Below are positions 3,925-63,834 of a stretch of 64,000 nucleotides of DNA, in pieces (position 1 is the first letter of the stretch; every line of letters begins with the position of its first letter). The translations under genes were made by a program, and so were the position numbers. Origin of the DNA: Candidatus Nomurabacteria bacterium (lineage in GTDB: Bacteria; Patescibacteriota; Minisyncoccia; Phycocordibacterales; UBA9973); assembly GCA_023267435.1 (NCBI GenBank), contig JAHFNH010000002.1, positions 4,219-68,218 on the forward strand. The letters are read 5' to 3'. The notes beneath the pieces are model-generated. The model made no database searches. It saw only the letters and a list, made by a program, of their open reading frames with translations, and had not been told where the DNA came from.

Positions 3925-4875
3925 ATGACAAAAAAGATATTATTATCCGGAATTCAGCCTTCAGGCAAACCACATATAGGTAATTATTTTGGAGCGATGA
4001 AACAATTTGTGGATTTGCAGGATCAATATGAAAGCTATGTCTTTATAGCTGATTATCATGCTCTGCATTCTTTAAGAAATGCAAAGGAAATGAGAGAAAA
4101 TATAATTGGTGTAATGCTTGATTATTTGGCTATTGGCCTTGATCCAGAAAAGGTGACTATTTTTAAACAGTCAGATGTTTCAGAACATACAGAGCTTTGT
4201 TGGATTTTCGATACTATTACAACTATGCCGTATCTTATGAGAGCTCACGCTTTCAAAGATGCTGAGGCAAAAAATAAAGAGATTGATGTCGGTACATTTA
4301 ATTATCCTGTTTTAATGGCAGCTGATATTTTATTATATAGTCCTGATATTGTGCCTGTTGGACAAGATCAGCAACAGCATGTCGAGATCGCTCGTGATAT
4401 TGCTCTTAAATTTAATAATACTTACGGTGATACATTTAAAATACCAGAGCATAAAATAATTAAAAACGTCGCTGTTGTTCCGGGTGTTGATGGGAGGAAA
4501 ATGTCTAAAAGCTATAAAAACACAATTCCACTTTTTGCTGATTATGAAGAAATAAAAAAGTGCGTGATGTCTATTGTGACAGATTCAAGCGGAGAGTTAC
4601 CAATAAATGTTTATTCTATTCATAAACTTTTCCGAGATGAAAAAGAATTAGAAAAAATTTACGAAGAAAAGAAAGGAAAATATAAAGAATTAAAAGAACT
4701 ACTTTTAGAGGATATAGAAAAATTTATTGCCCCGCTTCGTGAACGCAGGAAAGAATTTGAAAAGGATAAATCAAAAGTTCTAGAAATATTAAAAAAGGGA
4801 GCAGAGAAAGCTAAAAATATTTCTTCTAAAAAAATGGATTTAGTCAGAGAAAGAATAGGGGTTAAATTAGATTAA
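3925..4875 (+). CDS. trpS: Tryptophan--tRNA ligase
   Basis: Class I aaRS with HIGH-like 'PSGKPHIGNYFGA', 'KMSKS', and the conserved 'GQDQQQH' motif. Start placed at the internal Met of 'MTKKILLSGIQPSG'. Confidence 0.85.
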   Translation: MTKKILLSGIQPSGKPHIGNYFGAMKQFVDLQDQYESYVFIADYHALHSLRNAKEMRENIIGVMLDYLAIGLDPEKVTIFKQSDVSEHTELCWIFDTITTMPYLMRAHAFKDAEAKNKEIDVGTFNYPVLMAADILLYSPDIVPVGQDQQQHVEIARDIALKFNNTYGDTFKIPEHKIIKNVAVVPGVDGRKMSKSYKNTIPLFADYEEIKKCVMSIVTDSSGELPINVYSIHKLFRDEKELEKIYEEKKGKYKELKELLLEDIEKFIAPLRERRKEFEKDKSKVLEILKKGAEKAKNISSKKMDLVRERIGVKLD

Positions 4876-8438: not shown

Positions 8439-9494
8439 ATGATTCTAAATCTAGTTAAAATATTTTTGCCGACAACATTAGCCTTTTTCTTGGGTATTTT
8501 GATCACACCTGTTGCTACTCATTTTTTCTATAAATATAAAATGTGGAAAAGGCATTCCAGGGGAGATGTTGTTTCAAGTGATGATTTTAAAAAGATTCAT
8601 AATAGAGAAAATGAATTAAAAACTCCCAGAGTGGGAGGTATCGTAGTCTGGGTATCAGTTTTAGTAACGACACTTTGTTTTTTTGTTGTTTCAATTTTAT
8701 TTCCATCAGATATAACTTTCAAAATGAATTTTTTAAGCAGGAATCAAACATTAATTCCTTTTTTTACTCTACTTTTGGGGTCTTTGATTGGACTTGCGGA
8801 TGACTTAATGCAAATATATGGAACCGGCAAAATATCGCATGATGATAAATCTTGGCGTAAAACAAAAGCTTTACTTGTCGGTCTACTTTCGCTTTTAGTA
8901 GCGATGTGGTTTTTCTATAAGCTTGGAATGCATGCCATTCATATTCCATTTGACGGTTTTTGGGAACTCGGAATCTTTTTCATACCCATTTTTATTGTTG
9001 TATCTTTGGCGACTTTTTCCGGAGGTGTGATCGATGGTATAGATGGACTTTCTGGAGGAGTATTGGCGTCGATTTTTTCAGCGTATGGAGCCATTGCTTT
9101 TGCGAATCACCAAATGGACTTAGCGGCCTTCTCAGGAGCGGTTACAGGGGCAATTTTGGCTTTTCTTTGGTTTAATATTCCGCCGGCAAGATTTTATATG
9201 GGAGAGACGGGTATTATGGGACTTACCATAACTCTGGCAACATTGGCATTTTTAACTGATTCAGTTCTAATTCTGCCTATTGTTGCACTGCCACTTGTAA
9301 TAACTTCATTATCTGTCATTTTACAAATTTCTTACAAAAAATTTACCGGCGGAAAAAAATTATTTAAACTCGCACCGATTCATCATCATTTTGAAGCTAT
9401 TGGTTGGCCATCTTATAAAGTCACAATGCGTTTTTGGATTTTGTCAGTTGTTTTTGCGATTATAGGCATAATTTTAGCAATTATTAGCCGATAG
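8439..9494 (+). CDS. mraY: Phospho-N-acetylmuramoyl-pentapeptide transferase
   Basis: Polytopic membrane protein with 'KTPRVGG' and the C-terminal 'APIHHHFEAIGW' signature. It lies in the dcw-type order mraY-ftsW-murG. Confidence 0.8.
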   Translation: MILNLVKIFLPTTLAFFLGILITPVATHFFYKYKMWKRHSRGDVVSSDDFKKIHNRENELKTPRVGGIVVWVSVLVTTLCFFVVSILFPSDITFKMNFLSRNQTLIPFFTLLLGSLIGLADDLMQIYGTGKISHDDKSWRKTKALLVGLLSLLVAMWFFYKLGMHAIHIPFDGFWELGIFFIPIFIVVSLATFSGGVIDGIDGLSGGVLASIFSAYGAIAFANHQMDLAAFSGAVTGAILAFLWFNIPPARFYMGETGIMGLTITLATLAFLTDSVLILPIVALPLVITSLSVILQISYKKFTGGKKLFKLAPIHHHFEAIGWPSYKVTMRFWILSVVFAIIGIILAIISR

Positions 9495-12228: not shown

Positions 12229-13644
12229 ATGGAAAATAAAGTTGTCACAAGATTTGCCCCTTCGCCCACAGGTTTTATGCATGTGGGTAATTTGCGTACA
12301 GCTTTATATTCTTGGCTTTGGGCTAAGAAAAATAACGGCACTTTTATTTTAAGAATTGAAGATACAGACAAGGAAAGGGAAGTTGCAGGTGCTGAAGAAC
12401 ATATTATAAAAGTTTTAAAATGGGTTGGTTTGAATTGGGACGAAGGCCCGATTGTCGGCGGTCCGCAAAATTCCTACAAGCAATCAGAAAGATTAGATTT
12501 ATATAAAAAATACGCACAAACTTTAATAGATAAAGGCTTGGCTTATCCTGATCCTTACACAGCAGAGGAAGTTGAAGAATTTCGCAAAAAAGCTGAAGCA
12601 GATAAAAAAGCTTTTTTATATCGCGAACACAGGCCAGAAACTTTCGGAGTTTGGGATGGCACTAAACCTCTGCGTTTTAAAATTGAAAATATAAAACGCT
12701 ATGAATGGAATGATGTAGTTTTTGGCGATCTTTCGGCTGGACCAGAAGCATTGGACGATTTTATCTTAATTAAAAGCGATGGTTACCCGACTTATAACTT
12801 TTGTCACATTGTGGATGATATTGAAATGAATATTACTCATGTGATTCGCGGTCAAGAATACATCCCTTCTATTCCAAAATTTTTAGCTCTTTATGAAGCA
12901 TTAGGAGTGAAACCTCCAATTTTTGCCTGTTTACCTCACATTATGGGCAAAGATGGCCATAAAAAACTTGGTAAACGTGATGGAGCAAAAGATGCTTTTG
13001 AATATAAAGAAGAAGGTTATTTACCAGAAGCTTTAATAAACTTTTTAGCTTTATTGGGTTGGCATCCAAGTAGTGATCAAGAAGTGTTTACAGTCGAAGA
13101 ATTAATAAAAAGTTTTGAATTAGAAAGAATTCAAAAATCTGGAGCTCAGTGGAATGATGAAAAATTAGATTGGATAAATAAAGAACACATCAAAAAACTT
13201 TCTTCAGAAGAACTCCAGAAAAATATTTTTGAATGGCTACCGGAGAATTTGAGAATACAAAAAATTATTCCTCTTATAACAGAGAGAATTTCAAAGTTTG
13301 GAGATATTAAAAAAATGATTGAAATAGGGGAGTTAGACTTTTTGGTTAAACAGCCTGAGTATGCCAAAGAAAAATTAATTTTCAAAAACACTGCACCTGA
13401 AAAAATAAAGTCTAATTTACAACAGGCAATAAAAGCCTTAGAAAATATAGCTGAAAATGAGTTTACGTCCGAGAACGTTAAGGCTGCTTTAATGCAAATA
13501 GCTGACACACTAGAGAGTCGAGGAGAATTATTGCATCCAGTTCGTTTCGCATTGTCAGGACTGGATAAATCTCCCGATCCTTTTATTATTGCGGATATTT
13601 TAGGAAAAAATGAAACTATATCACGCTTACAAAAAGCAATTTAA
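12229..13644 (+). CDS. gltX: Glutamate--tRNA ligase
   Basis: 'RFAPSPTGFMHVGNLRTALYSWLWA...ILRIEDTD' class I GluRS signature, plus 'KLGKRDG' (KMSKS-like). Confidence 0.85.
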   Translation: MENKVVTRFAPSPTGFMHVGNLRTALYSWLWAKKNNGTFILRIEDTDKEREVAGAEEHIIKVLKWVGLNWDEGPIVGGPQNSYKQSERLDLYKKYAQTLIDKGLAYPDPYTAEEVEEFRKKAEADKKAFLYREHRPETFGVWDGTKPLRFKIENIKRYEWNDVVFGDLSAGPEALDDFILIKSDGYPTYNFCHIVDDIEMNITHVIRGQEYIPSIPKFLALYEALGVKPPIFACLPHIMGKDGHKKLGKRDGAKDAFEYKEEGYLPEALINFLALLGWHPSSDQEVFTVEELIKSFELERIQKSGAQWNDEKLDWINKEHIKKLSSEELQKNIFEWLPENLRIQKIIPLITERISKFGDIKKMIEIGELDFLVKQPEYAKEKLIFKNTAPEKIKSNLQQAIKALENIAENEFTSENVKAALMQIADTLESRGELLHPVRFALSGLDKSPDPFIIADILGKNETISRLQKAI

Positions 13645-14908
13645 TTTTTTTCTTTTAGTTATTATTTTGGTATTAATGCCAATCGTTTTTTCTTATGCGC
13701 AAACAGCGACAGAATTAAATAGTAAGATAGATCAAAAGAGCAAAGACATCGCGGCTTTGGAGCAAGAAATTAAGCAATATCAATCACAGCTTGATGATTT
13801 AGGTAAACAAAAAAGTTCCTTGAATGGTTCTTTGAAAGAACTTGATATCACTCGCAAAAAATTAATTGCTGATATTTCTGTAACTCAAAATAAAATTGAT
13901 CAAACAAATTACAAGATCGAAGATTTAAATTCTCAGATAGGCAATAAAGAAGATATTATTTCAAGTGATATTGTTGCCATAAAAGATCAAATAGTTAAGA
14001 CCAATGAGCTTGAGCTTGATTCGATAGTTGTAAACGTTCTTTCTGAAAAAAATATCAGTGATGCGTGGAATGATATAGACAATATGGCCACAGTCCGTGA
14101 AAAAATAAGACAAAAAATTGTTGAATTAAAACAAATAAAAGGAGAATTGGAAGATACAAGAAAAGAAACAACGGATGCCAGAAATCAATTGGTTTCTCTT
14201 AAGAATGAGTTGGCTGATCAGAAAAAGATAGTCGATCAAAATACTAATGATAAAAAGAAACTTTTAGCGCAAACAAAAAACAATGAAGCCAATTATCAGA
14301 AATTATTAAAAGATAGATTGGCTAAAAAAGATGCTTTTGAAAAAGATTTGCGTGATTATGAATCACAATTGAAATTTATTCTTGATCCTTCTAAGCTTCC
14401 TAGTAGCGGAGTTTTGAGCTGGCCGTTGGATAATATTTTTATAACTCAAATGTTCGGTAAAACTGAGGCCGGTAAGCGCTTATATGCCAACGGTACGCAT
14501 AATGGAATGGATTTTCGTGCTTCTGTCGGTACACCAGTGAAAGCTATGGCAGACGGTGTTGTGGCTGGTATTGGTGATACTGATGTTCAGTGTCCAGGAG
14601 TTTCTTTTGGACGTTTTACTCTCATTAAGTATGATAACGGTCTAGCAAGCACTTATGGGCACTTGTCGCTTATAAAAGTAGCCACTGGAGATAGAGTCTC
14701 TCGGGGCCAAATTGTTGGTTATAGTGGAAATACTGGATATTATACAGGACCGCATTTACATGTCTCGGTTTATGCGCGTGACGCCGTTAATTTGAAGACT
14801 TTGCCAAGTAAATCATGTCCCGGCCATGTTTTGACTCAACCAATATCTGCTGTTAATGCATATCTTGATCCGGCTTATTATCTGCCTCCTTATAATTATA
14901 AAAATTAA
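13610..14908 (+). CDS. M23-family metallopeptidase with N-terminal coiled coil (EnvC/NlpD-like)
   Basis: Signal peptide; ~230 aa coiled-coil region; C-terminal 'HNGMDF...GTPV...YGHLS...GNTGYYTGPHLH' LytM/M23 motifs. The start overlaps the gltX 3' end by 35 nt. Confidence 0.75.
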   Translation: MKLYHAYKKQFNFFLLVIILVLMPIVFSYAQTATELNSKIDQKSKDIAALEQEIKQYQSQLDDLGKQKSSLNGSLKELDITRKKLIADISVTQNKIDQTNYKIEDLNSQIGNKEDIISSDIVAIKDQIVKTNELELDSIVVNVLSEKNISDAWNDIDNMATVREKIRQKIVELKQIKGELEDTRKETTDARNQLVSLKNELADQKKIVDQNTNDKKKLLAQTKNNEANYQKLLKDRLAKKDAFEKDLRDYESQLKFILDPSKLPSSGVLSWPLDNIFITQMFGKTEAGKRLYANGTHNGMDFRASVGTPVKAMADGVVAGIGDTDVQCPGVSFGRFTLIKYDNGLASTYGHLSLIKVATGDRVSRGQIVGYSGNTGYYTGPHLHVSVYARDAVNLKTLPSKSCPGHVLTQPISAVNAYLDPAYYLPPYNYKN

Positions 14909-14959
14909 TTAACAATTTGTGTGTTGTTTTGAGCTGATGTTTGATGATATAATGTGATT

Positions 14960-15112
14960 ATGAATATAAAGAATATAGAAAATAAAGAAGGCGGATTTTT
15001 AAGAATAATCCTTTTCATAATTGTAGTTGTGTTTTTGATGAGTTATTTTCATATTACCGTAACTATGGTTTTCCATTGGTTTGTAACGATGTTCCATAAT
15101 GTTTTTTCATAA
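14960..15112 (+). CDS. Small single-pass membrane protein, truncated paralog of the next two genes
   Basis: 50 aa and not in the ORF track. 'KEGGFLRIILFIIVVVFLMSYFHITV' parallels 'KKGGISILGILFLTVILIFVLSYFNISL' in the next gene. Confidence 0.4.
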   Translation: MNIKNIENKEGGFLRIILFIIVVVFLMSYFHITVTMVFHWFVTMFHNVFS

Positions 15113-15115
15113 AAC

Positions 15116-15445
15116 ATGAAAAATAAATCAAATAAAAAAGGCGGAATAAGCATACTAGGAATATTGTTTCTAACTGTTATTTTAATTTTTGTTTTAAGTT
15201 ATTTCAATATAAGTTTGAAAGCTATTGTTGAGAATCCTAATACCCAAAATAATTTCAGTTATGCTGGTTATGTCGGTAGAAGTTTATGGAATGATTATTT
15301 ATCAAAACCAGTATCAGATGTATTAGGCGGAATTACAGTGAAAACAATTTGGGATGGTTTTATTTCAAATATGCAAAATATTCATGATGGCAAGCCTACA
15401 GACTTTCAAAAACTAGCTCCAATTGTCAAATTTAATTCAAATTGA
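15116..15445 (+). CDS. Small single-pass membrane protein (paralog family, C-terminal SNMQxIHDGKPTD motif)
   Basis: 109 aa with an N-terminal TM helix. The C-terminal 'FISNMQNIHDGKPTDFQKLAP' is shared with the downstream gene. Confidence 0.5.
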   Translation: MKNKSNKKGGISILGILFLTVILIFVLSYFNISLKAIVENPNTQNNFSYAGYVGRSLWNDYLSKPVSDVLGGITVKTIWDGFISNMQNIHDGKPTDFQKLAPIVKFNSN

Positions 15446-15475
15446 TTTTTCTATACTAGGGGTTATAATTTAAGT

Positions 15476-15676
15476 ATGAAAAGAATAGGTGATCAGAGCA
15501 GGGGATTTATCCAGGCCATGATCTCCATCGCCATAATGGTGATTATCTTTTATCTCGTTGTAAATACGGCCTTATTCAAGTTCTTTTGGAATTCTTTTGT
15601 CTCAAATATGCAAAGAATTCACGATGGTAAACCGACAGATTGGCAACTCGCTGCACCTAGAGCAGTGTTTAAATAA
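15476..15676 (+). CDS. Small single-pass membrane protein (paralog family)
   Basis: 66 aa with a TM helix. The C-terminal 'FVSNMQRIHDGKPTDWQLAAP' is nearly identical to the motif in the upstream gene. Confidence 0.5.
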   Translation: MKRIGDQSRGFIQAMISIAIMVIIFYLVVNTALFKFFWNSFVSNMQRIHDGKPTDWQLAAPRAVFK

Positions 15677-15677
15677 T

Positions 15678-15712
15678 TTGACTATTATATTTTTATATGT
15701 TAGAATTCTAAC
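15678..15712 (+). promoter_or_regulatory. Sigma70-like promoter (TTGACT-17-TAGAAT) with a 14-bp perfect palindrome GTTAGAATTCTAAC over the -10
   Basis: Read directly: TTGACT at 15678-15683, a 17-bp spacer, then TAGAAT inside the palindrome at 15699-15712. It lies upstream of the gene at 15765. Confidence 0.4.
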
Positions 15713-15764
15713 GAAGGGAAGTTAGCTCTTTTAAAAATAAATATAAACCAAAAATAAAACGAAA

Positions 15765-16601
15765 ATGAGGAAAGTAATTTTTTTGTTGTGCTTGTTAACT
15801 CAGACAGTTAGCGCGCAACACGGTAAGATGTCGGTGTCGTTTTGTTCTGGCACAGATAAAATAAATTTTAACGGAGGTGATTTTATTAATCAGGATTCAA
15901 TAAATTTTTACGATCATTCGACTGGTAAAATTACCAAATGGAAATGGGAATTCGATGGAGCGGAAAATCCTGTTCTGGAATATGACAAATTTCGTCCAGT
16001 AGTGAGTGCTAAATGGAAAAAAGATGGTCGCTATAAAGTGAAGTTAACAACTTTTAATTCAAAAGGTGATTACAGTACTTTTGGTGTAACAATCTATGTA
16101 AAATTTATTAGCACAGAACCAGAAGAAAAAAAACAGAAAAAAGATTACCTTTCTTTGTTTGTTGGTCCTACAGCTGAATTCATTTTTCCGACACAAAAAG
16201 GGAATTCAAATGAAACTTTTTTAGGTGGAATGAGTGGACTTATAATCAAACCGCATAGTAAATGGACTTCGAATATTACAGTGGGTTATTTTTTGGAACA
16301 TAATATTGGATCATCAGTATCTAAGAAATTTTCGGGATTATATACCAATATAATGGTTCCTGTATCAAAAAAGGGTCATGTAATGTTCGGACCTACATTT
16401 CGGGTCGGAAAATACGTTCAAGGGTCTACAAAAGGGTTCGCTAAGGCATTTGGGTTACAAATGAATTATTTACCTAATAAGACTTTAACACCTAAAGGAC
16501 CAATCGATATGCGATTACAGATCGCTTCAGCCGTTGAAGTTTTTAATGTCAGCGATGTTTCTGGTTCCTTAACAGTTTTATTTGATTTTGGTTTGAGATA
16601 G
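15765..16601 (+). CDS. Secreted protein with an N-terminal PKD-like domain
   Basis: Signal peptide 'MRKVIFLLCLLTQTVSAQ'. 'WKWEFDGAENP...GRYKVKLTTFNSKGDYS' follows the PKD pattern W.FGDG...G.Y.V.L. The C-terminal half is beta-rich. Confidence 0.45.
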   Translation: MRKVIFLLCLLTQTVSAQHGKMSVSFCSGTDKINFNGGDFINQDSINFYDHSTGKITKWKWEFDGAENPVLEYDKFRPVVSAKWKKDGRYKVKLTTFNSKGDYSTFGVTIYVKFISTEPEEKKQKKDYLSLFVGPTAEFIFPTQKGNSNETFLGGMSGLIIKPHSKWTSNITVGYFLEHNIGSSVSKKFSGLYTNIMVPVSKKGHVMFGPTFRVGKYVQGSTKGFAKAFGLQMNYLPNKTLTPKGPIDMRLQIASAVEVFNVSDVSGSLTVLFDFGLR

Positions 16602-16755
16602 TTAGTTTAATTTAGTTTTATTACAGAAAAGCCTTCTTTTAATTAAGAGGGCTTTTTTATTATCTTTATTATATATGCTATGTCGCAAAGATATATTGTG
16701 CGACATCCTCATAATAATTCCCCTTTAAAAAATAAAGCTATAAAACCGGCTTTTA

Positions 16756-17706
16756 TTATATTGCAGGCTCATGTTTAGTAATGCAATCATTATAAAGTTT
16801 CACTTGCCTATTATATTCGGCAGTTTCTTCTTTTAGTTTTATAATTTCTTGATTATAAACGCCAATTCTATCATTGTAGTTATTTATGTCTTTTTCGTAT
16901 TCAGGATTCGTTTTATCTAAAATGTTCTCTATAGAGCTTTTTAATGCGTTTAAATTAACTGATTCAGCATCTAACTGTATCTTTTTACTGCTTGCTTCTT
17001 CTTTTAACTTTAAATCAACTCCCGGGCAAATATTTGAGGATAAACCGAAATGTTGCACGGCGACCCAAATATTTTTTCCTTGATAAAATCCTTTCTTAAC
17101 TGATACCCCAATCTCTTTATACTGACTCTTTAAAATATTTGCGCGATGACCTGGGCTTGCCATCCAAGCATCCACCAAATCGCGATCATTTTCAAAATCA
17201 CCCATTGCAAGATTTTCGCCGATTAAAATGAAATCATACTCACTCTCCTTGCTCAAATCTTCTATTGTCGTGCCATTTGGCGAAACATGCTCGAAATATT
17301 GTTTTTGAAAAATATCATTTAATTTTATTTCAGCAGAATTGTCTAATTTTGAATTCTCAGAAAGAGATGTAAATCCATAACGTTCTCTCTGAATATTTGT
17401 CAGTAAAATAATTCCTTTTGCATCTAAAAAACCGGAATTTTCAAAAAGATAGCTTGGGCTAGATATTTCTTCTGTTTTTGTTTTTAAAAGTGGCGGAGGC
17501 GTGAATAATTCTTTTTGTTTAGCTTGTATCACCTCTTGTTTTACTTCTGTTTTAGTATCTGGCTGTACATTTTGTTTTATTTCTTCTTGATTACTATTTC
17601 CAAAATAAACTGGATTAGAAAATTGCAAAAATAAAAATCTGATGCCAAGCAACAAAAAAATTCCAATTAAAAAAGAAACTCTTATTTTTCTGTTAATTTT
17701 TTTCAT
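16756..17706 (-). CDS. Membrane-anchored CAP/SCP/PR-1 (YkwD-like) domain protein with C-terminal coiled coil
   Basis: N-terminal TM, a Pro-rich linker, and the CAP motifs 'VDAWMASPGHRANIL...YKEIGV'. Confidence 0.6.
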   Translation of the reverse strand: MKKINRKIRVSFLIGIFLLLGIRFLFLQFSNPVYFGNSNQEEIKQNVQPDTKTEVKQEVIQAKQKELFTPPPLLKTKTEEISSPSYLFENSGFLDAKGIILLTNIQRERYGFTSLSENSKLDNSAEIKLNDIFQKQYFEHVSPNGTTIEDLSKESEYDFILIGENLAMGDFENDRDLVDAWMASPGHRANILKSQYKEIGVSVKKGFYQGKNIWVAVQHFGLSSNICPGVDLKLKEEASSKKIQLDAESVNLNALKSSIENILDKTNPEYEKDINNYNDRIGVYNQEIIKLKEETAEYNRQVKLYNDCITKHEPAI

Positions 17707-17708
17707 TT

Positions 17709-18086
17709 TTATTTACAAGAACTTGAAAGCTCATAACCGGCTTTTTCAGCTTCGGCTGGTGAGTTAAAATAAATTTTATTACCATCTTTAATGGTTTTTC
17801 CAGCTGAACATCCAGAGGGATAATATTTGTGTCCATTTTTAGATGCAAAATAATTTTGGGAAGTTTTTGTAGAAATAATGCTATTTGGAGACGTATTTAG
17901 TGTAGTATTCGACAAACCAACGGTGGCATTTTCCTGGGTTGGATATTCTATTTTGATACCCGAAGATGAACTTTCTTTTGATAATCTGCCAATTCCAAAA
18001 CAGCTCAAGCCCACCAGAACAACGATAAGAATCGTCAAAGCATCCTTTCCCCCATCACTTTCTATAAATTGCTTGATTTTTTTCAC
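17709..18086 (-). CDS. Membrane-anchored protein with a C-terminal Cys motif (YYPSGC...IYFNSPAEAEKAGYE...C)
   Basis: 125 aa with one TM. The C-terminal pattern loosely resembles Ada-type metal-binding modules. It abuts the CAP protein, so probably one operon. Confidence 0.35.
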   Translation of the reverse strand: MKKIKQFIESDGGKDALTILIVVLVGLSCFGIGRLSKESSSSGIKIEYPTQENATVGLSNTTLNTSPNSIISTKTSQNYFASKNGHKYYPSGCSAGKTIKDGNKIYFNSPAEAEKAGYELSSSCK

Positions 18087-18155
18087 GGAATTGTTTATAC
18101 TCTATCTACGTTAGTTATAAAAGAATTTTACCATTAAATAATATAAAAGCAATAT

Positions 18156-18428
18156 ATGGCACATAGAAAGGCCGGCGGAACCGCCAAAAATTTAAGAGAC
18201 TCCAATCCAAAGTACCTAGGTACTAAACTTGCTGATGGCCAAAAAGCTCAGTCTGGTTCTATTATTATTCGTCAGAGAGGTACAGCTATTATGGCTGGTA
18301 CTAATGTCGGTATCGGTAAAGATCATACTCTTTTCGCTCTAAAACCAGGAACTGTAAAATTTGGTTCCAAACGAAAAACATCTTTCAATGGAAAGACTAC
18401 AGTTAAGAAAGTGGTAAACGTAATATAA
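18156..18428 (+). CDS. rpmA: 50S ribosomal protein L27
   Basis: '[29 protein letters not shown]...IIIRQRGT...GKDHTLFAL' is the canonical L27. Confidence 0.9.
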
Positions 18429-24194: not shown

Positions 24195-24668
24195 TTATCT
24201 TGTTACAGAGATCGCTGCGCCGAGTTCAGCATTTGGAGCTGCTACGGTTACGCGATTATTTGCTGATTTCATAATAGTATAACAAACACCAACTGCGCTA
24301 CACACACCATTAGGGTCAGATGGCATAGATACTATATATTTTTCTGCAGCAGTAAGAACATTTAAATCAACAGTTGCACCACAAACTATTATACCGTTAC
24401 TTTTACAGATTTCTGTTGCAGCACCAGTAATGAATGCAGGTAATGCTCCGCCATTATCAATAGCATACTGATAAGTAGCATTCAAGATAGTGTTGACATC
24501 AGATCGTCTCTGAGCATTTCTTGATTCAGCTAATTGTTTGGCTGGGTTGATGGCTATAATGACGATTGCCGCTAAGATGGCGATCATCGCTATCACCAAC
24601 AAAACTTCCAAGAGAGTGAATCCTTTTTGTTGCTTAAATTTATTTTGAAACAAATTAAACATTTTCAT
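24195..24668 (-). CDS. Type IV pilin (prepilin-type N-terminal cleavage/methylation)
   Basis: 'KGFTLLEVLLVIAMIAILAAIV' prepilin signature, a conserved E5, and a C-terminal Cys pair. Confidence 0.7.
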   Translation of the reverse strand: MKMFNLFQNKFKQQKGFTLLEVLLVIAMIAILAAIVIIAINPAKQLAESRNAQRRSDVNTILNATYQYAIDNGGALPAFITGAATEICKSNGIIVCGATVDLNVLTAAEKYIVSMPSDPNGVCSAVGVCYTIMKSANNRVTVAAPNAELGAAISVTR

Positions 24669-24776
24669 ATGATTTTTTTTTATTAATAATAATTACTCTT
24701 CTAATACTTTAATCATAACAAGCATATTTTTTATGCACAAATATTTTATGGGGATAAAGTGGATAAATAAAAGTTT

Positions 24777-25187
24777 TTAAGAAACTTCCTGCCATGATGT
24801 CACATTGATCGATGGATTTATCTGGTCGATAGTTATTAAAATTTTTCTAACGACGGTTCCAACTGTTCCAGTTGATGTGATTGTCCTGTTTTCAGCTCCA
24901 TTATCTACAACATCATAAGTACAAGAGTCTGGCCCAATACTTATAGTATTAGTGCCGACGAATGCTGTTGAATTTCTTATCTCTTGTAGAGCGGATTCAG
25001 CACACAAATTGGCTAAAGATTTAGCTTTACTTGATTCTTCTATGATAAAACCTGTTTTAGAAGATCCGAGTCCTATAAGTAAAACTGAACTGGCTATCGC
25101 TATAGCCACGGCGCCAAAAACTAAGACGGCGAACATCGTCACAAACCCTTTTTCATTATTAAATTTATTTTTTCTAAATAATTTCAT
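24777..25187 (-). CDS. PilX-N-like minor pilin / pilus assembly protein
   Basis: 'EKGFVTMFAVLVFGAVAIAIAS' is a PilX_N-style hydrophobic N-terminus, and the gene is in the pilus cluster. Confidence 0.4.
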   Translation of the reverse strand: MKLFRKNKFNNEKGFVTMFAVLVFGAVAIAIASSVLLIGLGSSKTGFIIEESSKAKSLANLCAESALQEIRNSTAFVGTNTISIGPDSCTYDVVDNGAENRTITSTGTVGTVVRKILITIDQINPSINVTSWQEVS

Positions 25188-25202
25188 AAATTTTTCACTT
25201 AA

Positions 25203-25733
25203 TTAGTGATGCAAAGTAGCACTTCCATAAAACGTTCGCGAATAATTATATTCATTCCTACTGCTTGGATTTAAATAAGACAAAGTAAAAGAAATCCCTA
25301 CAGTGCCAGGCGTTAATGGGCGTGATAAATTCTCAAACGATAGACTAGAAGCCGAAACTTGCAAGTTATTTGTTAAAGATATTGCAGGATCAAATCCTTC
25401 TCTTATTCTAATTTCATTTCCTGATAAACTGAAAACTGTTGGATCTTTCAATGGATTAACAACACTGAGCGATAAAGAAACGTCATTTATTCCAGTTGAA
25501 GGAGAATTAATACTATTTGCATTGCGGATAGTCTGAGTCATAAGTTGCATTATTTGAGTTCCCTCCCCATCTACTTCGGATATAACTTGGTTTTTAATTC
25601 TTGATTCTAAAAAAGTAGAAAGCATCATAGATATGGCTAGAAGCATAATAGCTGACAAACTGATATATAAAATCAATTCGACTAAAGTATAGCCTTTATC
25701 TTCTTTTAAATATTTTTTGAAATTATTTTTCAT
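25203..25733 (-). CDS. Pseudopilin (prepilin-type N-terminal domain)
   Basis: 'DKGYTLVELILYISL' prepilin motif. Confidence 0.6.
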   Translation of the reverse strand: MKNNFKKYLKEDKGYTLVELILYISLSAIMLLAISMMLSTFLESRIKNQVISEVDGEGTQIMQLMTQTIRNANSINSPSTGINDVSLSLSVVNPLKDPTVFSLSGNEIRIREGFDPAISLTNNLQVSASSLSFENLSRPLTPGTVGISFTLSYLNPSSRNEYNYSRTFYGSATLHH

Positions 25734-25743
25734 ATTTTTTTAT

Positions 25744-26181
25744 TTAAAACGGCTTCCAATTTGTCAGATAAGTAGTTAAAACAACATTGCCAGTTCTTTG
25801 TAGATTTTGTTGCCAATCAACCGTAGATTTTATTAATTTTGTATTCGCATCAACGGTTGAAATATTTATTGTTCGAGTGAATATGCCATTTGTATCTGGT
25901 GTCACATCAAGTGTCCACTGACTCGCAACTTTTGTAAGACCATACGATCCGTCTGTTAAATTTGCAAAATTTTCATCTCGAATATTTCTAACAGCTTCAA
26001 GCCCTTCTTCAGACAAAAATACCGCTTGTGAATGTTTTCCGCCTAAAGATGAAGTTTCTTCGCCGAGACTTAAAATACCAACTAAAGACATTATTAATGT
26101 TGAAAAAATTACCGCAGTCAATAAAACCTCAATGAGGCTGAAACCAGAATTATTATTAATATGTAAGCGCCCCTTTTTCAT
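25744..26181 (-). CDS. Pseudopilin (prepilin-type N-terminal domain)
   Basis: 'NSGFSLIEVLLTAVIFS' prepilin motif. Confidence 0.6.
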   Translation of the reverse strand: MKKGRLHINNNSGFSLIEVLLTAVIFSTLIMSLVGILSLGEETSSLGGKHSQAVFLSEEGLEAVRNIRDENFANLTDGSYGLTKVASQWTLDVTPDTNGIFTRTINISTVDANTKLIKSTVDWQQNLQRTGNVVLTTYLTNWKPF

Positions 26182-26596
26182 TGATTGATATTGTACGAAT
26201 ATTTCCAGCAGTTGATAATGTTAAGATACCGGCACTATTTGGAAATCCATCTAATTTTGAAAAAACTATTTCTGTCAGACCAGTTGCAGAAATAATTGCG
26301 GGCATGTCAGATACTTCGTCGAAATCTACATCTCTAGTGGCGAAACCAGCACCCTTGAATAAGGTTATAGTGTCACTAGCAATATTTACACCCCAAGTAG
26401 AATCTCCATCGACTGCTTCAGACAATACTTGAGCTCTTCTTAAATTTTCCACGATAGTTCCGATAGTAGTATCGACATTATTACGGATTTGATAATCCTG
26501 ATAGATCGGAGCTGAGATACCAAAAATTAGAACAATGACGGATATAGATAAAATGACTTCGATCAATGTAAAACCTTTTGAGAAATTTTTGATCAT
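26156..26596 (-). CDS. Pseudopilin (prepilin-type N-terminal domain)
   Basis: 'SKGFTLIEVILSISV' prepilin motif. Confidence 0.65.
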   Translation of the reverse strand: MIKNFSKGFTLIEVILSISVIVLIFGISAPIYQDYQIRNNVDTTIGTIVENLRRAQVLSEAVDGDSTWGVNIASDTITLFKGAGFATRDVDFDEVSDMPAIISATGLTEIVFSKLDGFPNSAGILTLSTAGNIRTISINEKGALTY

Positions 26597-26607
26597 ATTT
26601 TTATAAT

Positions 26608-27789
26608 TTACCTTACAATCACATTAGTAACAGGGATGCTTGGTGCAATTTCCTTATTCATTCCCCCTATCAAGCTATAAATAGGCATTATTATGGATAA
26701 TGCCACAGCCATGACTCCAAACCATACGAAAATCAGAAGAATCGGTTCGAGTGCCACAGTTAAGTTTTTGATAGTATTATCTGATTTATTTTCAAAAGCT
26801 TCACCAATATTTTTTAAAACACCTGACAAATTTCCAGATTGTTCTCCGACGACGATCATTTGCACTATTGTGCTTGGAATCATTTTGTTTGTATTATGGA
26901 AAAGCAAAAAAGATTTTTGTAAAGAATTACCTTCTTCTACATGTTTTCTTATGCTTCCATATAATTTTTTATAATTTTCAAGATTAGTCGAATCATAAAG
27001 TACAGAAAGTGAATCATTCAAAGATACGCCAGCGCTTAGTAGATTGCCTAAGATATATCCGAATCTGGATATTTCTATTTCTCTCATTAATTTTTTAATT
27101 CCTGGAATAGAAAATAAAAAGGCTTGGCCTATGAATTTTGTCTGTTGGTTATAAAAAATAAAATAACTTACTAGGATTATAAAAAATAATAAAGCTGGAA
27201 TAAAAATCAATCCATAATTTACCAAGAATGAACTGAAAGCAATAAATATTTTTGTTATAAGAGGAAGCTGAACATTCAATTCTGTGAATACTGGAATTAG
27301 TTTCGGCAAGATAAACCAAAAAATTCCAATCGCGACAATCAGTGTGACTGACAAAACTAAAATCGGATATGCCATAGCGCTCTGTATTCGCGATAATGCA
27401 ACTCTATCTTTTTGCTGTTGCACAGCTATAGCGTTTAAGTTGGCGCCGAGTTGTCCTGATTTCTCCCCTATTTTTATAAGCGTTATAGTAGACGCGCTGA
27501 AAATTCCAGCTTCTTTAAGAGCCTGCCAAAGCGGTGCACCTTGTTCTACTTCGTTCTTTACGTCTAAAATTATTCTTCTGATTTTTTTAGAACGTATTCC
27601 ACTGGTGATTATTCCTAAAGATTCTGTTATACCTACACCTGCATTTACAAGCATGGCTAAGTTTTCAATAAAATAATTTCTCTCTTCTCCGAGATTAATT
27701 TTTGAAAAAATATTTAATTTCTTCTTTTTATTTTTTTTCATAAATATTTTGAGCATGAATTGGAGAAGCGACTCGGAGCAATTCTTCAA
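26608..27789 (-). CDS. pilC: Type IV pilus / T2SS platform protein (GspF/PilC family)
   Basis: Two GspF repeats and 3 TM helices. It overlaps pilB, so the true start is likely the internal Met 'MKKNKKKK'. Confidence 0.75.
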   Translation of the reverse strand: MKNCSESLLQFMLKIFMKKNKKKKLNIFSKINLGEERNYFIENLAMLVNAGVGITESLGIITSGIRSKKIRRIILDVKNEVEQGAPLWQALKEAGIFSASTITLIKIGEKSGQLGANLNAIAVQQQKDRVALSRIQSAMAYPILVLSVTLIVAIGIFWFILPKLIPVFTELNVQLPLITKIFIAFSSFLVNYGLIFIPALLFFIILVSYFIFYNQQTKFIGQAFLFSIPGIKKLMREIEISRFGYILGNLLSAGVSLNDSLSVLYDSTNLENYKKLYGSIRKHVEEGNSLQKSFLLFHNTNKMIPSTIVQMIVVGEQSGNLSGVLKNIGEAFENKSDNTIKNLTVALEPILLIFVWFGVMAVALSIIMPIYSLIGGMNKEIAPSIPVTNVIVR

Positions 27790-29443
27790 GTGTTGTGATT
27801 CCAGCTTTTACTTTTTCTAATCCATCTTGAAATAAAGATTTTGAACCTTGGCTTTTTGCTAAATCCCAAATTTGTTTAGCAGAAGGATTTTTTAGAACTA
27901 AATCATGAATTTCGGGCGTAATGTGAATAATTTCAAAAAGAGCAGTTCTTCCATGATAGCCTGTATTGTCACAAGATTTGCAACCTGCGCCTTTATAAAG
28001 AATCATTCCTTTATCCATATATTCTCCTGTAAAGAATTTTTTTATATCATTTTCCTTAGACTCATCGACTACGCGACATTTGTCGCAAATTTTTTGTACT
28101 AGGCGTTGAGCAACGATTAATTCTAATGTTGAAGCTAAAAGAAACGGACTGATGCCAAGGTCGATAAATCTAGGTATCGCAGTGGCTGCATCATTTGAGT
28201 GAAAAGTTGATAATAAAAGATGGCCTGTCAAAGCTGCTCCGATGGCTATTTGAGCTGTTTCTTCATCGCGAACTTCTCCGACTAAAATAATATTTGGATC
28301 TTGTCTGACAATAGATTGCAGTCCTTTTGCAAAAGTAAGATTGGTTAGTGGATTTACTTGGACTTGGTTTATGCCTGGAATTTTATATTCTACCGGATCT
28401 TCTATTGTTGTTATGTTAACCTCAGAATTATTCAACACTTTTAATATTGAATAAACTGTAGTGGTTTTTCCAGATCCAGTCGGACCAGTGACTACGATCA
28501 TCCCAAATGGTTTTTTTGAGGCTTCCATTATCATAGCTTGATGATCTGAAGAAAGTCCTATGTCGCTGAGTGAGAAGCTTCGAATATTTTCTGAAAGTAT
28601 GCGAATAGCTATTTTTTCTCCATCGAGTGTTGGCAATATCGAAACTCTCATATTGATTGTTTCGCCATTTTTAACATAACGGATAGCGCCGTCTTGCGCT
28701 GAAAAATGTTCGTCTGTTCGCAAATATGCTTGAACTTTAATTCTGTTTAATATGTTTTCATAATATTTTTTAGAAAAACGTCCCACTTCGCGCAATATTC
28801 CATCAATACGAAAACGCACAACAACTTCATTTTCCTGAGGTTCGAAATGTATGTCTGAACTCGAATATTGGAGAGCATCATTAAATATTTCTTCTATGAT
28901 CTCCGGAGCGATACCCCGACCGGAATTTATTATTTCGATAAAGCGAGCTTTGAGTGATCGTTTGTATTGCTTTAGAGCTGTATCGATATCTTCGGGCAAG
29001 GAATAATTTAATTCAATTATTTTTTTAGTAAAAAACTGTTTTAATACTGAGGCATTTTTTTTCAATTCTTTTGGATTGTCTGTAGTAATTATTACAGTTT
29101 TATCATTTCCTTTAATAAAAATAACCCTATGTTTTTTTGCTATTTCTTCTGGAATTTCTAACACTTGTTCTGAAGTTACCGGTTTGGAACCTAGGTTAAA
29201 ATAAGGGACATCAAACCATAAAGCTATAGATTCACCTAAAGTATTATTATTAATAATTCCCTTCATTAATAAATATTCAATAACAGATATATTGTTTTTA
29301 TTGGAAAATTCCTTAGCTTTTTTAAGTTCGATAGGCGTGATATGTTTATCGCGCAATAAAACATCTTCAATAAATAACTCTCCCTCTGAATTATCATTAT
29401 TAGTTTTCATATTATTATTAAGGATATCACAGAACTTTCCCAT
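27728..29443 (-). CDS. pilB: Type IV pilus assembly ATPase (GspE/PilB family)
   Basis: Walker A 'GPTGSGKTTT', Asp box, Walker B, a His box, and the tetracysteine 'CDKC...CKSC'. Confidence 0.85.
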   Translation of the reverse strand: MGKFCDILNNNMKTNNDNSEGELFIEDVLLRDKHITPIELKKAKEFSNKNNISVIEYLLMKGIINNNTLGESIALWFDVPYFNLGSKPVTSEQVLEIPEEIAKKHRVIFIKGNDKTVIITTDNPKELKKNASVLKQFFTKKIIELNYSLPEDIDTALKQYKRSLKARFIEIINSGRGIAPEIIEEIFNDALQYSSSDIHFEPQENEVVVRFRIDGILREVGRFSKKYYENILNRIKVQAYLRTDEHFSAQDGAIRYVKNGETINMRVSILPTLDGEKIAIRILSENIRSFSLSDIGLSSDHQAMIMEASKKPFGMIVVTGPTGSGKTTTVYSILKVLNNSEVNITTIEDPVEYKIPGINQVQVNPLTNLTFAKGLQSIVRQDPNIILVGEVRDEETAQIAIGAALTGHLLLSTFHSNDAATAIPRFIDLGISPFLLASTLELIVAQRLVQKICDKCRVVDESKENDIKKFFTGEYMDKGMILYKGAGCKSCDNTGYHGRTALFEIIHITPEIHDLVLKNPSAKQIWDLAKSQGSKSLFQDGLEKVKAGITTLEELLRVASPIHAQNIYEKK

Positions 29444-51710: not shown

Positions 51711-52460
51711 TTATTTCTTCTTTAAAATATTTAATACTGTTGACACTTCATCAATAAATTGTGCGTTTGCGGGCTTTAATTCATGAGGCATAAATTTAGT
51801 TCTTAAAATATTTTTAGTTGAATATCTTTCTTTTTTCATTGGAAGCAATGGACCACGTCCGTTATGATAAAGTTGCCATAGTGCTTCATGAATACCTTCT
51901 AAAAGGATACAAAATTTTTCCAATTCACTAATATTAACTTTATCAAAAAGAATTTTAACTTCTTCATTGGTAGAATATTTCTTATGTCCGAACTGGTGTC
52001 TTATTGGACGATATATATTTTCATAAATTTTCTGTTGTTTTGAAATAAATTTTTTAAATTTTCTAAAATCATCATCAGTTGGCTCATAAAAACTTTCCAT
52101 ATATTTTTTTAAATAGCTATTCATTTTATCAGTTTTTTTATCTTCATTGTTTACCCATCTTTTTTTAAATGATTTTTTAGAAAAAAGAGATTTATTATTT
52201 TCAACAACTTTAAATAAAGTATGGATGTTGTGCTTGGATTCATTATCAAAAATCCTTCCAATTGTTATGAAAGTTGAATTTTGAAAACCACTAAGAACTG
52301 TATTCCAAAATGTCGGAGTTCTATTCATGGTACTAAGGATATGTTTATTTTTATTAACAATAACATGAATTGCTAACTCCATATATAGATATTTAGAAAG
52401 AAGAATAACTTCATTTCTAAAAATATTTAATTCTAGTAAGAATTTTTCTTCCGAAGACAT
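51711..52460 (-). CDS. Hypothetical all-alpha protein with an Rx4H (HEPN-like) motif
   Basis: 'YRPIRHQFGHKK' matches R-x4-H. It is co-oriented with, and 3 nt from, the J-domain gene. Confidence 0.3.
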   Translation of the reverse strand: MSSEEKFLLELNIFRNEVILLSKYLYMELAIHVIVNKNKHILSTMNRTPTFWNTVLSGFQNSTFITIGRIFDNESKHNIHTLFKVVENNKSLFSKKSFKKRWVNNEDKKTDKMNSYLKKYMESFYEPTDDDFRKFKKFISKQQKIYENIYRPIRHQFGHKKYSTNEEVKILFDKVNISELEKFCILLEGIHEALWQLYHNGRGPLLPMKKERYSTKNILRTKFMPHELKPANAQFIDEVSTVLNILKKK

Positions 52461-62841: not shown

Positions 62842-63834
62842 TTAGACACTAAAATTAGAAATATCGTAGAGATTCGCGTCGTCACTTTCTATTTCATCTT
62901 TTGTTCGATCATCAATAGGCGCTTCTAGTTTTTCTTCTGATGAAGTTTCTGAGGCAGGAACATTTTGAGCAATATAATTCTCAAGCATCTGCTCAGGCAT
63001 TTTTTGTGCACCTGTCTTGTTTATTAAATCTAAAATAGCTCGCAAATCTTCCGTTGAAAAGAAATCGATTTTAATCTGCCCGCCTAATTCTTTTCGGTCT
63101 ATATGCACGCGAGTGCCGAGTTTGTCTTGAAATTCTTCTTCGAGTTCGGTTATTTCCGGATCAGGCATAAACTCTTTCTTGCGAACACGATCAAAGGCTA
63201 TTTTTCTAGCCAATCTTTCCGCTTCACGCACGGTTATCTTTTTGAATAATATTTCTTTAAACAAAACGATCTGTTCTTCTGGATGATCTGCAAGCATCAA
63301 TATCGGTCGAGTATGTCCTTCGGTAATTCTGCCTTCAGAAAGAGCGTCAAGAATTTCATTTGGTAATGAAAGTATGCGCAGTGAGTTTGAAACATATTCT
63401 CGACTGCGTCCCATTTTTTTAGCAATTTCATTATGAGTAAATTTAAATTCACTCGCTAAGCGAAAAAAAGCTCTAGCGCGATCAACAGAATTCAAATCCT
63501 CGCGTTGCAAGTTTTCTATAATAGCAAGCTCAAGCTTCATCATAGAAGTATCACCTGTTCTTATGATCGCTGGCACTTGAGCGACTCCAGCGATCTTGGC
63601 AGCACGCAGTCTGCGTTCTCCGGCAATGAGTTCATATTCAGTCACAAGTCCTCCGTCTTCTTTTTCCACTTCCATGCGAGAAACTGTCAGTGGCTGAAGC
63701 ACTCCATATTGTTTTATAGAATCAGCCAAATCTTGAAGACGCGCTTCTTCGAATTCCCTTCTTGGTTGGTAAGGGTTTGGTTTAATTTTGTCTGTGTCGA
63801 TCCAGAAAATTGAATTGGAATAAATGTTAGACAT
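62842..63834 (-). CDS. parB: ParB/Spo0J-family partition protein
   Basis: ParB N-terminal box 'KIKPNPYQPRREF...VLQPLTV' and HTH 'FTHNEIAKKMGRSREYVSNSLRIL'. Confidence 0.75.
   Translation of the reverse strand: MSNIYSNSIFWIDTDKIKPNPYQPRREFEEARLQDLADSIKQYGVLQPLTVSRMEVEKEDGGLVTEYELIAGERRLRAAKIAGVAQVPAIIRTGDTSMMKLELAIIENLQREDLNSVDRARAFFRLASEFKFTHNEIAKKMGRSREYVSNSLRILSLPNEILDALSEGRITEGHTRPILMLADHPEEQIVLFKEILFKKITVREAERLARKIAFDRVRKKEFMPDPEITELEEEFQDKLGTRVHIDRKELGGQIKIDFFSTEDLRAILDLINKTGAQKMPEQMLENYIAQNVPASETSSEEKLEAPIDDRTKDEIESDDANLYDISNFSV

Follow-up and report, generated by a model that had tools for sequence, protein, structure and literature searches.

Paralogous membrane micro-proteins beside an EnvC-like M23 peptidase gene in a Candidatus Nomurabacteria genome

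What are three very short genes, lying head to tail directly downstream of a cell-wall peptidase gene, doing in the genome of a Candidatus Nomurabacteria bacterium? The genes, here called open reading frames (ORFs) 1, 2 and 3, lie in a stretch of 64,000 nucleotides (nt), which is referred to as the window (assembly GCA_023267435.1, contig JAHFNH010000002.1, forward-strand positions 4,219 to 68,218). Patescibacteria, to which the organism belongs, make up a very large radiation of bacteria whose genomes are tiny. To our knowledge, many regulators of model bacteria have not been identified in this group, and the control of cell-wall hydrolases and of division is poorly understood there.

An earlier note on the window took the three genes for one tandem family of diverging membrane micro-proteins, for which it offered three functions: membrane regulators of the peptidase, bacteriocin-like peptides with immunity partners, or phase-variable surface micro-proteins. 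The descriptive part of our answer is highly probable. The three genes encode paralogous, modular and conserved membrane micro-proteins, and ORF1 and ORF2 form a vertically inherited unit, fixed at the 3' edge of a peptidoglycan-synthesis block and confined to the Paceibacteria/'Nomurabacteria' branch. As to function, the probability of the statement as a whole, i.e. that this conserved unit serves the cell envelope with the M23 peptidase as partner, is put at roughly 0.4.

Module composition and families of ORF1, ORF2 and ORF3

All three genes are present on the + strand in the head-to-tail arrangement given by the earlier note. ORF1 extends from ATG 14960 to TAA 15112 (50 amino acids, aa), ORF2 occupies positions 15116-15445 (109 aa), with its start 3 nt past the ORF1 stop codon, and ORF3 is found at 15476-15676 (66 aa). 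The mechanical ORF of ORF1 opens at GTG 14954; homologs and the promoter favour ATG 14960 as the start. Pairwise comparison bore out the likeness that had been noticed between the N-termini of ORF1 and ORF2 (13/37 residues identical, E = 2e-7) and between the C-termini of ORF2 and ORF3 (19/32 residues identical, E = 3e-13). At the level of families, a profile-profile comparison of ORF1 with ORF2 gave a probability of 97% (E = 1.2e-10) over the N-terminal 37 ORF2 columns. The module common to both consists of a basic leader, G-F/I, a transmembrane (TM) helix and YF(N/H)I(S/T). The ORF3 family aligned with the ORF2 family from end to end (hhalign; probability 99.2%, E = 7e-20), with a central gap of about 40 residues. 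Paralogy and membrane-protein character, both proposed before, are supported. In a six-frame translation of the window, NMQxIHDGKP occurs at two sites only, one in ORF2 and one in ORF3. The three ORFs share one reading frame in the window, which looks coincidental, since in other genomes the ORF1-ORF2 distance is not divisible by three; read-through or fusion of the three ORFs was rejected for the same reason.

ORF2 is the ancestral and core member of the three. A word-indexed search recovered 135 relatives and an exhaustive search 236 representatives at 50% identity, nearly all of them about 100-115 aa long. Every named source belongs to the Patescibacteria (Paceibacterota, Minisyncoccia, Nomurabacteria and a few others). 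The search for homologs bearing the C-terminal motif had been set beforehand as a refuting test of the earlier proposal; hundreds were found and the refutation fails. Members of the family are built from a basic N-terminus, one TM helix, a helical, aromatic-rich domain of about 75 aa and an NMxRIxDGxPTD tail. Near-invariant residues in the ORF2 alignment (A1) are N46, Y49, W58, Y61, P65, W79, F82 and G92, and in close homologs conservation of the Gly ahead of the TM helix reaches at least 90%. The AlphaFold2 (AF2) model, computed for the monomer only, features a TM helix at residues 13-29, a break at residues 30-40 and a helix-turn-helix (helices 41-70 and 73-91). Its predicted local distance difference test score (pLDDT) averages 73 and climbs to 90 across residues 81-100, where the C-terminal motif is located. 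Four Lys precede the TM helix, which by the positive-inside rule points to an N-in/C-out topology, so that the helical domain and the NMxRIxDGxPTD tail are predicted to lie on the outer face of the membrane. Pairwise ratios of nonsynonymous to synonymous substitution rates (dN/dS) range from 0.07 to 0.29. With a tighter ORF2 alignment (A2), 58 non-redundant loci were gathered as a synteny set, in which genes were mapped by tblastn; the loci of more distant ORF2 homologs (L064-L069) were examined beside them.

ORF1 had been regarded as a truncated copy. It does lack the C-terminal motif, but ORF1 has a conserved family of its own with invariant residues (G12, F13, I17 and W40) and is therefore not a decayed truncated copy. 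A profile built from the homologs recovered from the loci matched 366 database clusters of 44-67 aa, typically about 48 aa. ORF1 is present in 49 of the 58 loci, with pairwise dN/dS values of 0.05-0.28. Behind a short basic N-terminus, the AF2 model (mean pLDDT 78) has two hydrophobic helices, the TM helix at about residues 11-29 and, after a break at 30-33, another at 34-49 with the invariant Trp. The gene was omitted from the first-stage ORF track, and its homolog in locus L001 was likewise uncalled. ORF1 is an old partial paralog that comprises the N-terminal 'basic-G-F/I-TM-YF(N/H)I(S/T)' module only. The distant loci L064 and L066 have no ORF1 gene, and their ORF2 homologs carry an ORF1-like 'GF(L/I)KLII' N-terminus, which fits an origin of ORF1 by partial duplication of ORF2 in one sub-lineage.

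ORF3 combines the TM module with the C-terminal motif (…FWNSFVSNMQRIHDGKPTDWQLAAP) and corresponds to ORF2 minus about 40 central residues. It was found in four of the 58 loci and as a pseudogene in a fifth. Outside the window, homologs are limited to L006, L030 and L060, i.e. one database homolog and two (L030 and L060) added by tblastn over the loci. They are 46-62% identical to the ORF3 of the window and keep the TM module intact; the dN/dS between the window and L006 is 0.15. The pseudogene (L008, 4354-4560) differs from the near-identical L006 copy by a change of codon 10 from GGA to TGA and a 1-nt deletion near the 3' end, while ORF1 and ORF2 beside it are intact. Given this decay in a close relative of L006, ORF3 is dispensable. 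It is a rare internal-deletion paralog with its own promoter. Instead of one diverging tandem family, the locus thus holds a conserved ORF1-ORF2 operon and an optional, separately transcribed ORF3.

None of the three proteins had a match above noise in Pfam, NCBIfam or PHROG. Pfam searches with each sequence in the alignments of ORF2 (A1) and ORF1 (A3) yielded sub-threshold TM noise only, a PDB profile search and Foldseek against PDB gave no sequence or fold analog, and no description of either family was found in the published literature. ORF1 and ORF2 are two families absent from Pfam, NCBIfam, PHROGs and PDB.

Gene order, neighbours and expression signals

The gene order in the 58 loci is MraY-FtsW-MurG-GltX-M23-ORF1-ORF2, followed after a gap by a gene for a 125-aa protein (- strand), L27, L9 (-), an S41 protease (-) and, further on, a penicillin-binding protein (PBP; -). 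The block from GltX through L27 and L9 to the S41 protease is collinear in nearly all loci, and M23 adjoins ORF2 upstream in 55 of the 58. The neighbourhood is dense in envelope genes, with an S11 carboxypeptidase, MraY, FtsW, MurG, M23, CAP/YkwD, the CtpB-like S41 protease and the PBP.

The M23 (LytM) peptidase is encoded at 13610..14908 (+) and features a signal peptide, a coiled coil of about 230 aa and a C-terminal M23 domain, as is characteristic of EnvC-like proteins. Pfam Peptidase_M23 was matched with E = 1.5e-24, and multiple coiled-coil matches cover residues 30-250. Residues 45-387, near full length, align to PDB chain 8tzk_E, deposited as 'Peptidase M23'; the EnvC chain 8hd0_E was matched as well. 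In EnvC of Escherichia coli, the HxxxD and HxH metal motifs are degenerate. Both are intact in the translation of the neighbour (HNGMD and HLH), and by this difference the protein is probably a hydrolase in its own right, beyond the role of an activator.

A putative ORF1-ORF2 promoter is located at 14924..14953 (+). It consists of a -35-like TTGTTT (14924-14929), an 18-nt spacer and the extended -10 element TGATATAAT (14945-14953), which ends 6 nt ahead of the ORF1 ATG. Most of the 49 loci with an ORF1 gene have the layout TTGCC/TTGTT...TGGTAAAAT-6nt-ATG ahead of it. In loci devoid of ORF1 (L017, L028, L032, L057 and L062), the box is positioned 6 nt before the ORF2 ATG (7 nt in L032). ORF3 has a putative promoter at 15442..15469 (+; TTGATT, 16 nt, TATAAT), with a -35 box overlapping the ORF2 stop codon and a -10 box that stops 6 nt short of the ATG. 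In a scan of positions 13400-18200 it was the joint top-scoring promoter-like site (10/12 matches), and every ORF3 homolog is preceded by TTGACA-17-TAAAAT-6-ATG or TATTAT-6/7-ATG. The conserved box 6 nt before ORF1 and before ORF3 is (TGn)TAnAAT, and TGCTAAAAT stands 6 nt before the GltX ATG. This layout marks out three transcription units, [GltX-M23], [ORF1-ORF2] and [ORF3]. Since only 6 nt separate the -10 box from the ATG, the mRNAs of ORF1 and ORF3 would be leaderless, with transcription of the operon starting at or next to the ORF1 ATG. No Shine-Dalgarno sequence precedes ORF2; its translation presumably relies on coupling or re-initiation, 3 nt past the stop codon of ORF1.

A promoter of this type as a peculiarity of ORF1-3 was considered and rejected, as 16 of the 67 larger ORFs of the window (at least 100 aa) share the layout, with an extended -10 (TGnTAnAAT) 5-8 nt, mostly 6 nt, before the start. 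Among them are the genes at 8439 (MraY), 12229 (GltX), 38582, 39743 (-) and 62842-63834 (-). Expression from leaderless mRNAs would thus seem to be common in this Paceibacteria genome.

GltX, a glutamyl-tRNA synthetase (12229..13644, +), was assigned from the Pfam families of homologs in related loci and from the tblastn synteny. The upstream transcription unit opens with this gene, the 3' end of which shares 35 nt (13610-13644) with the start of M23. An overlap of 32-35 nt recurs in many related loci, e.g. at 3515-3549 in L001, which suggests translational linkage of a tRNA synthetase and a cell-wall hydrolase.

A variable spot (15677..17708) separates the small-protein genes from the 125-aa gene. 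Of 53 loci, 35 have less than 200 bp between the ORF2 end and the 125-aa gene; in the remaining ones the distance is 0.36-2.9 kb. The spot is a hot spot for accessory genes: an integrase is encoded in L003 (5389-6369), genes for a HisKA_7TM histidine kinase, Phage_rep_O and a D12 methylase in L006 (6260-10900), and a CAP protein, as in the window, in L064 (4316-5898). ORF3 and a Lys-rich secreted protein are also among its contents across genomes. In the window, the spot holds a gene for a secreted PKD-like protein (15765-16601, +; 278 aa) and one for a CAP/YkwD-like protein (16756-17706, -; Pfam/NCBIfam). Of the two flanks described by the earlier note, the EnvC-like M23 peptidase upstream was confirmed; the PKD label downstream rests on sub-threshold Pfam scores (23.0 bits against a threshold of 27, and 22.0 against 23.5). 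The C-terminal half of the PKD-like protein is beta-rich and ends in ...LFDFGLR. No homolog was detected in the 58 related loci and no relative in PDB, for which reason the gene looks like a strain-specific acquisition. An inserted island composed of ORF3 and the PKD and CAP genes, with a duplicated, att-like ORF2 3' end, was also considered. It was rejected because ORF3 homologs with an intact TM module occur without PKD and CAP genes (L008, L030 and L060) and because a CAP gene recurs at the variable spot in L064.

The 125-aa membrane-anchored protein (17709..18086, -) has a Cys-containing C-terminal domain and marks the downstream syntenic boundary, with L27 next to it. Its gene was found by tblastn in 53 of the 58 loci; the only matches were weak ones to sunset and Ada_Zn (Zn-binding). 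Far from the locus, a HEPN AbiU2-family protein is encoded at 51711-52460 (-; E = 7e-17); its gene, putatively one of abortive infection or defence, adjoins that of a DnaJ-domain protein. A 268-kb contig with a full Patescibacteria-type locus (L052, JAMPXW010000002.1) was deposited as 'Burkholderiales bacterium' and is probably a mis-binned or mislabelled metagenome-assembled genome (MAG). Several third-party annotation (TPA) MAGs labelled 'Saccharibacteria' hold a Paceibacteria-type locus.

A proposed cell-envelope role and the alternatives

According to the proposed mechanism, ORF2 would present its helical, aromatic-rich domain of about 75 aa on the outer face of the membrane and assist the cell-wall remodelling machinery as an accessory subunit. 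Its likeliest partner would be the adjacent secreted EnvC-like M23 endopeptidase, tethered or modulated by ORF2. ORF1, and ORF3 where present, may join ORF2 in the membrane through the common TM module. A precedent is given by EnvC-type hydrolases, which depend on membrane partners (PMC7668044, PMC6705773). Purifying selection on ORF1-ORF2 (dN/dS 0.05-0.29) is counted in favour of the proposal. The adjacency of M23 and ORF2 is retained even where ORF2 is only 29-38% identical, namely in L064, where GltX is absent, and in L066, where the two are 2 nt apart. Of the three functions proposed earlier, only that of membrane partners or regulators of M23 survives, as a candidate. A cell-envelope accessory role with M23 as the partner is nevertheless advanced tentatively, at somewhat under even odds.

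Several observations weigh against this role. ORF2 directly follows GltX, with no M23 between them, in L029 and L057 of the synteny set and in the distant loci L067, L068 and L069, and a GTPase follows ORF2 in L065 and L068. The link between ORF2 and M23 is thus frequent, not obligatory. As the whole region is syntenic in the clade, the adjacency of M23 is no stronger evidence than that of GltX or L27, and co-expression with M23 is not required, since ORF1-ORF2 has its own promoter. The Pfam, NCBIfam, PDB and Foldseek searches gave no sequence or structure analog to anchor a function.

Much of this feeds a serious alternative, which we consider rather unlikely. ORF1 and ORF2 could be lineage-specific membrane proteins unrelated to peptidoglycan and M23, e.g. 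in membrane homeostasis or as accessories of a transporter or insertase, their position reflecting gene order frozen in small, rarely rearranged genomes. The collinear block from GltX to the S41 protease, the five loci in which ORF2 has no adjoining M23 and the separate promoter all agree with it, as does the lack of any match to a cell-wall-binding domain in ORF1-3 or in the family scans. However, the pairing of M23 and ORF2 outlasts the loss or separation of GltX in L064 and L066, and ORF2 is still found beside the FtsW-MurG block in L069.

Processing by the prepilin peptidase PilD, with a leader cut after Gly, would make the proteins short pilin- or pseudopilin-like subunits or released hydrophobic peptides. 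ORF1 resembles type IV prepilins and Flp mini-pilins in its short basic leader, with Gly at the end and Phe next, ahead of a hydrophobic helix of about 20 residues, and it falls within the Flp size range. In addition, G12-F13 is invariant in ORF1, the Gly ahead of the TM helix is well conserved in ORF2, and the genome holds a type IV pilus cluster (24195-29443, -; at least three canonical pilins, PilC (T2SSF) and PilB (T2SSE)). The true pilins of this cluster served as positive controls and matched N_methyl at 7.6e-8, 2.5e-5 and 5.9e-5, whereas ORF1-3, 50 ORF2 members and 46 ORF1 members did not match the N_methyl/prepilin models (PF07963, TIGR02532) at E <= 1. The true pilins read KG|FTLLE, SG|FSLIE and KG|FTLIE, i.e. 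G|F(T/S)L(I/L)E with Glu at +5. The corresponding sites of ORF1 (GG|FLRIIL), ORF2 (GG|ISILGI) and ORF3 (RG|FIQAMI) have neither the (T/S)L(I/L)E signature nor Glu at +5. As the three genes are also unlinked to the pilus cluster, processing of this kind is very improbable.

A holin-like, membrane-permeabilising pair that controls the release or activity of M23, and thereby forms an autolysis module, is hardly credible. Small single-pass membrane proteins beside a peptidoglycan hydrolase would suit such a module, and ORF1 is extremely hydrophobic; yet M23 has its own signal peptide, PHROG gave no match, and Pfam Phage_holin_2_1 was matched by only 2 of 50 ORF2 members (E = 0.15). The locus is a core chromosomal one without phage genes, and the conserved ORF2 ectodomain is atypical of holins.

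The bacteriocin proposal of the earlier note, with one or more peptides and an immunity partner, had small hydrophobic proteins with a 'GG' ahead of the hydrophobic part in its favour, as well as the fact that M23 enzymes can be bacteriolysins. Double-glycine (class II) bacteriocin leaders are 15-30 residues long, with hydrophobic residues at -4, -7 and -12, an invariant GG and the pattern LSxxELxxIxGG. The leaders found here comprise only about 10-12 residues, carry K/N at -4 and do not show this pattern, and ORF2 and ORF3 vary at the second Gly. There is no C39/ABC exporter or immunity gene nearby, searches of phages, plasmids and IMG/VR viral contigs gave no relatives, and, over the 58 genomes, purifying selection acts on a fixed and vertically inherited locus. 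The proposal was dropped as almost certainly wrong. Phase-variable surface micro-proteins, or chance ORFs, for which only the tandem arrangement speaks, can be dismissed in view of hundreds of homologs with intact frames and low dN/dS, the lack of slippery repeats and homopolymer tracts in or upstream of the genes, and a copy number that is stable over the 58 genomes, with one ORF1 and one ORF2.

Two unannotated families were defined, of about 48 aa (ORF1, short enough to escape gene calling) and about 107 aa (ORF2). Conserved, under purifying selection and fixed beside FtsW-MurG-M23, they are testable candidates for lineage-specific envelope factors, and such micro-proteins belong to the conserved core of these Patescibacteria genomes. 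Even with a function outside the wall, the families would stay cleanly defined and the annotation corrected, a result of modest general interest.

Comparison with known envelope systems

The bitopic divisome proteins FtsB, DivIC and FtsL (about 100 aa) are comparable to ORF2 in size, in their N-in single-pass topology and in an all-helical ectodomain, and their genes are located in or near the division and cell wall (dcw) cluster, which is comparable to the siting of ORF2. However, models of DivIC, FtsL and FtsB were not matched at E <= 1 by ORF1-3, 50 ORF2 members or 46 ORF1 members. In the AF2 model of ORF2, a monomer with a mean pLDDT of only 73, the TM helix seems to be followed by a break and a hairpin of helices and not to run on into a coiled coil. 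A separate small gene upstream of the PBP occupies the usual position of FtsL.

In the EnvC-FtsEX system, the FtsEX complex sets the precedent for a membrane partner (PMC7668044). The M23 neighbour has the EnvC architecture and aligns over both the coiled coil and the LytM domain to 8tzk_E and to the EnvC chain 8hd0_E; FtsEX was not seen in the 64-kb window. SweD and SweC (YqzD/YqzC) of Bacillus subtilis, of 13 and 16 kDa, assist the FtsEX-CwlO hydrolase complex as small membrane co-factors, are thought to associate via their TM segments and are needed for the activity of the coiled-coil peptidoglycan hydrolase (PMC6705773). Like ORF1 and ORF2, they are two small proteins of one operon and both bear a TM segment at the N-terminus. 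The sequences show no detectable relationship, and the likeness is one of functional logic only; moreover, both SweC and SweD have their soluble domains in the cytoplasm, whereas the ORF2 domain is predicted outside.

A bolder version of the proposal, which is speculative and improbable, would make ORF1-ORF2 a new class of membrane tether or regulator for a catalytically competent EnvC-type M23 peptidase, replacing FtsEX, with its SweCD-like co-factors, in Paceibacteria. The NMxRIxDGxPTD helix would then dock on the M23 coiled coil, and ORF3 would be a competing or modulating decoy with the docking motif only. Taken together, ORF1 and ORF2 resemble, in kind, other small bitopic accessory proteins of envelope machineries.

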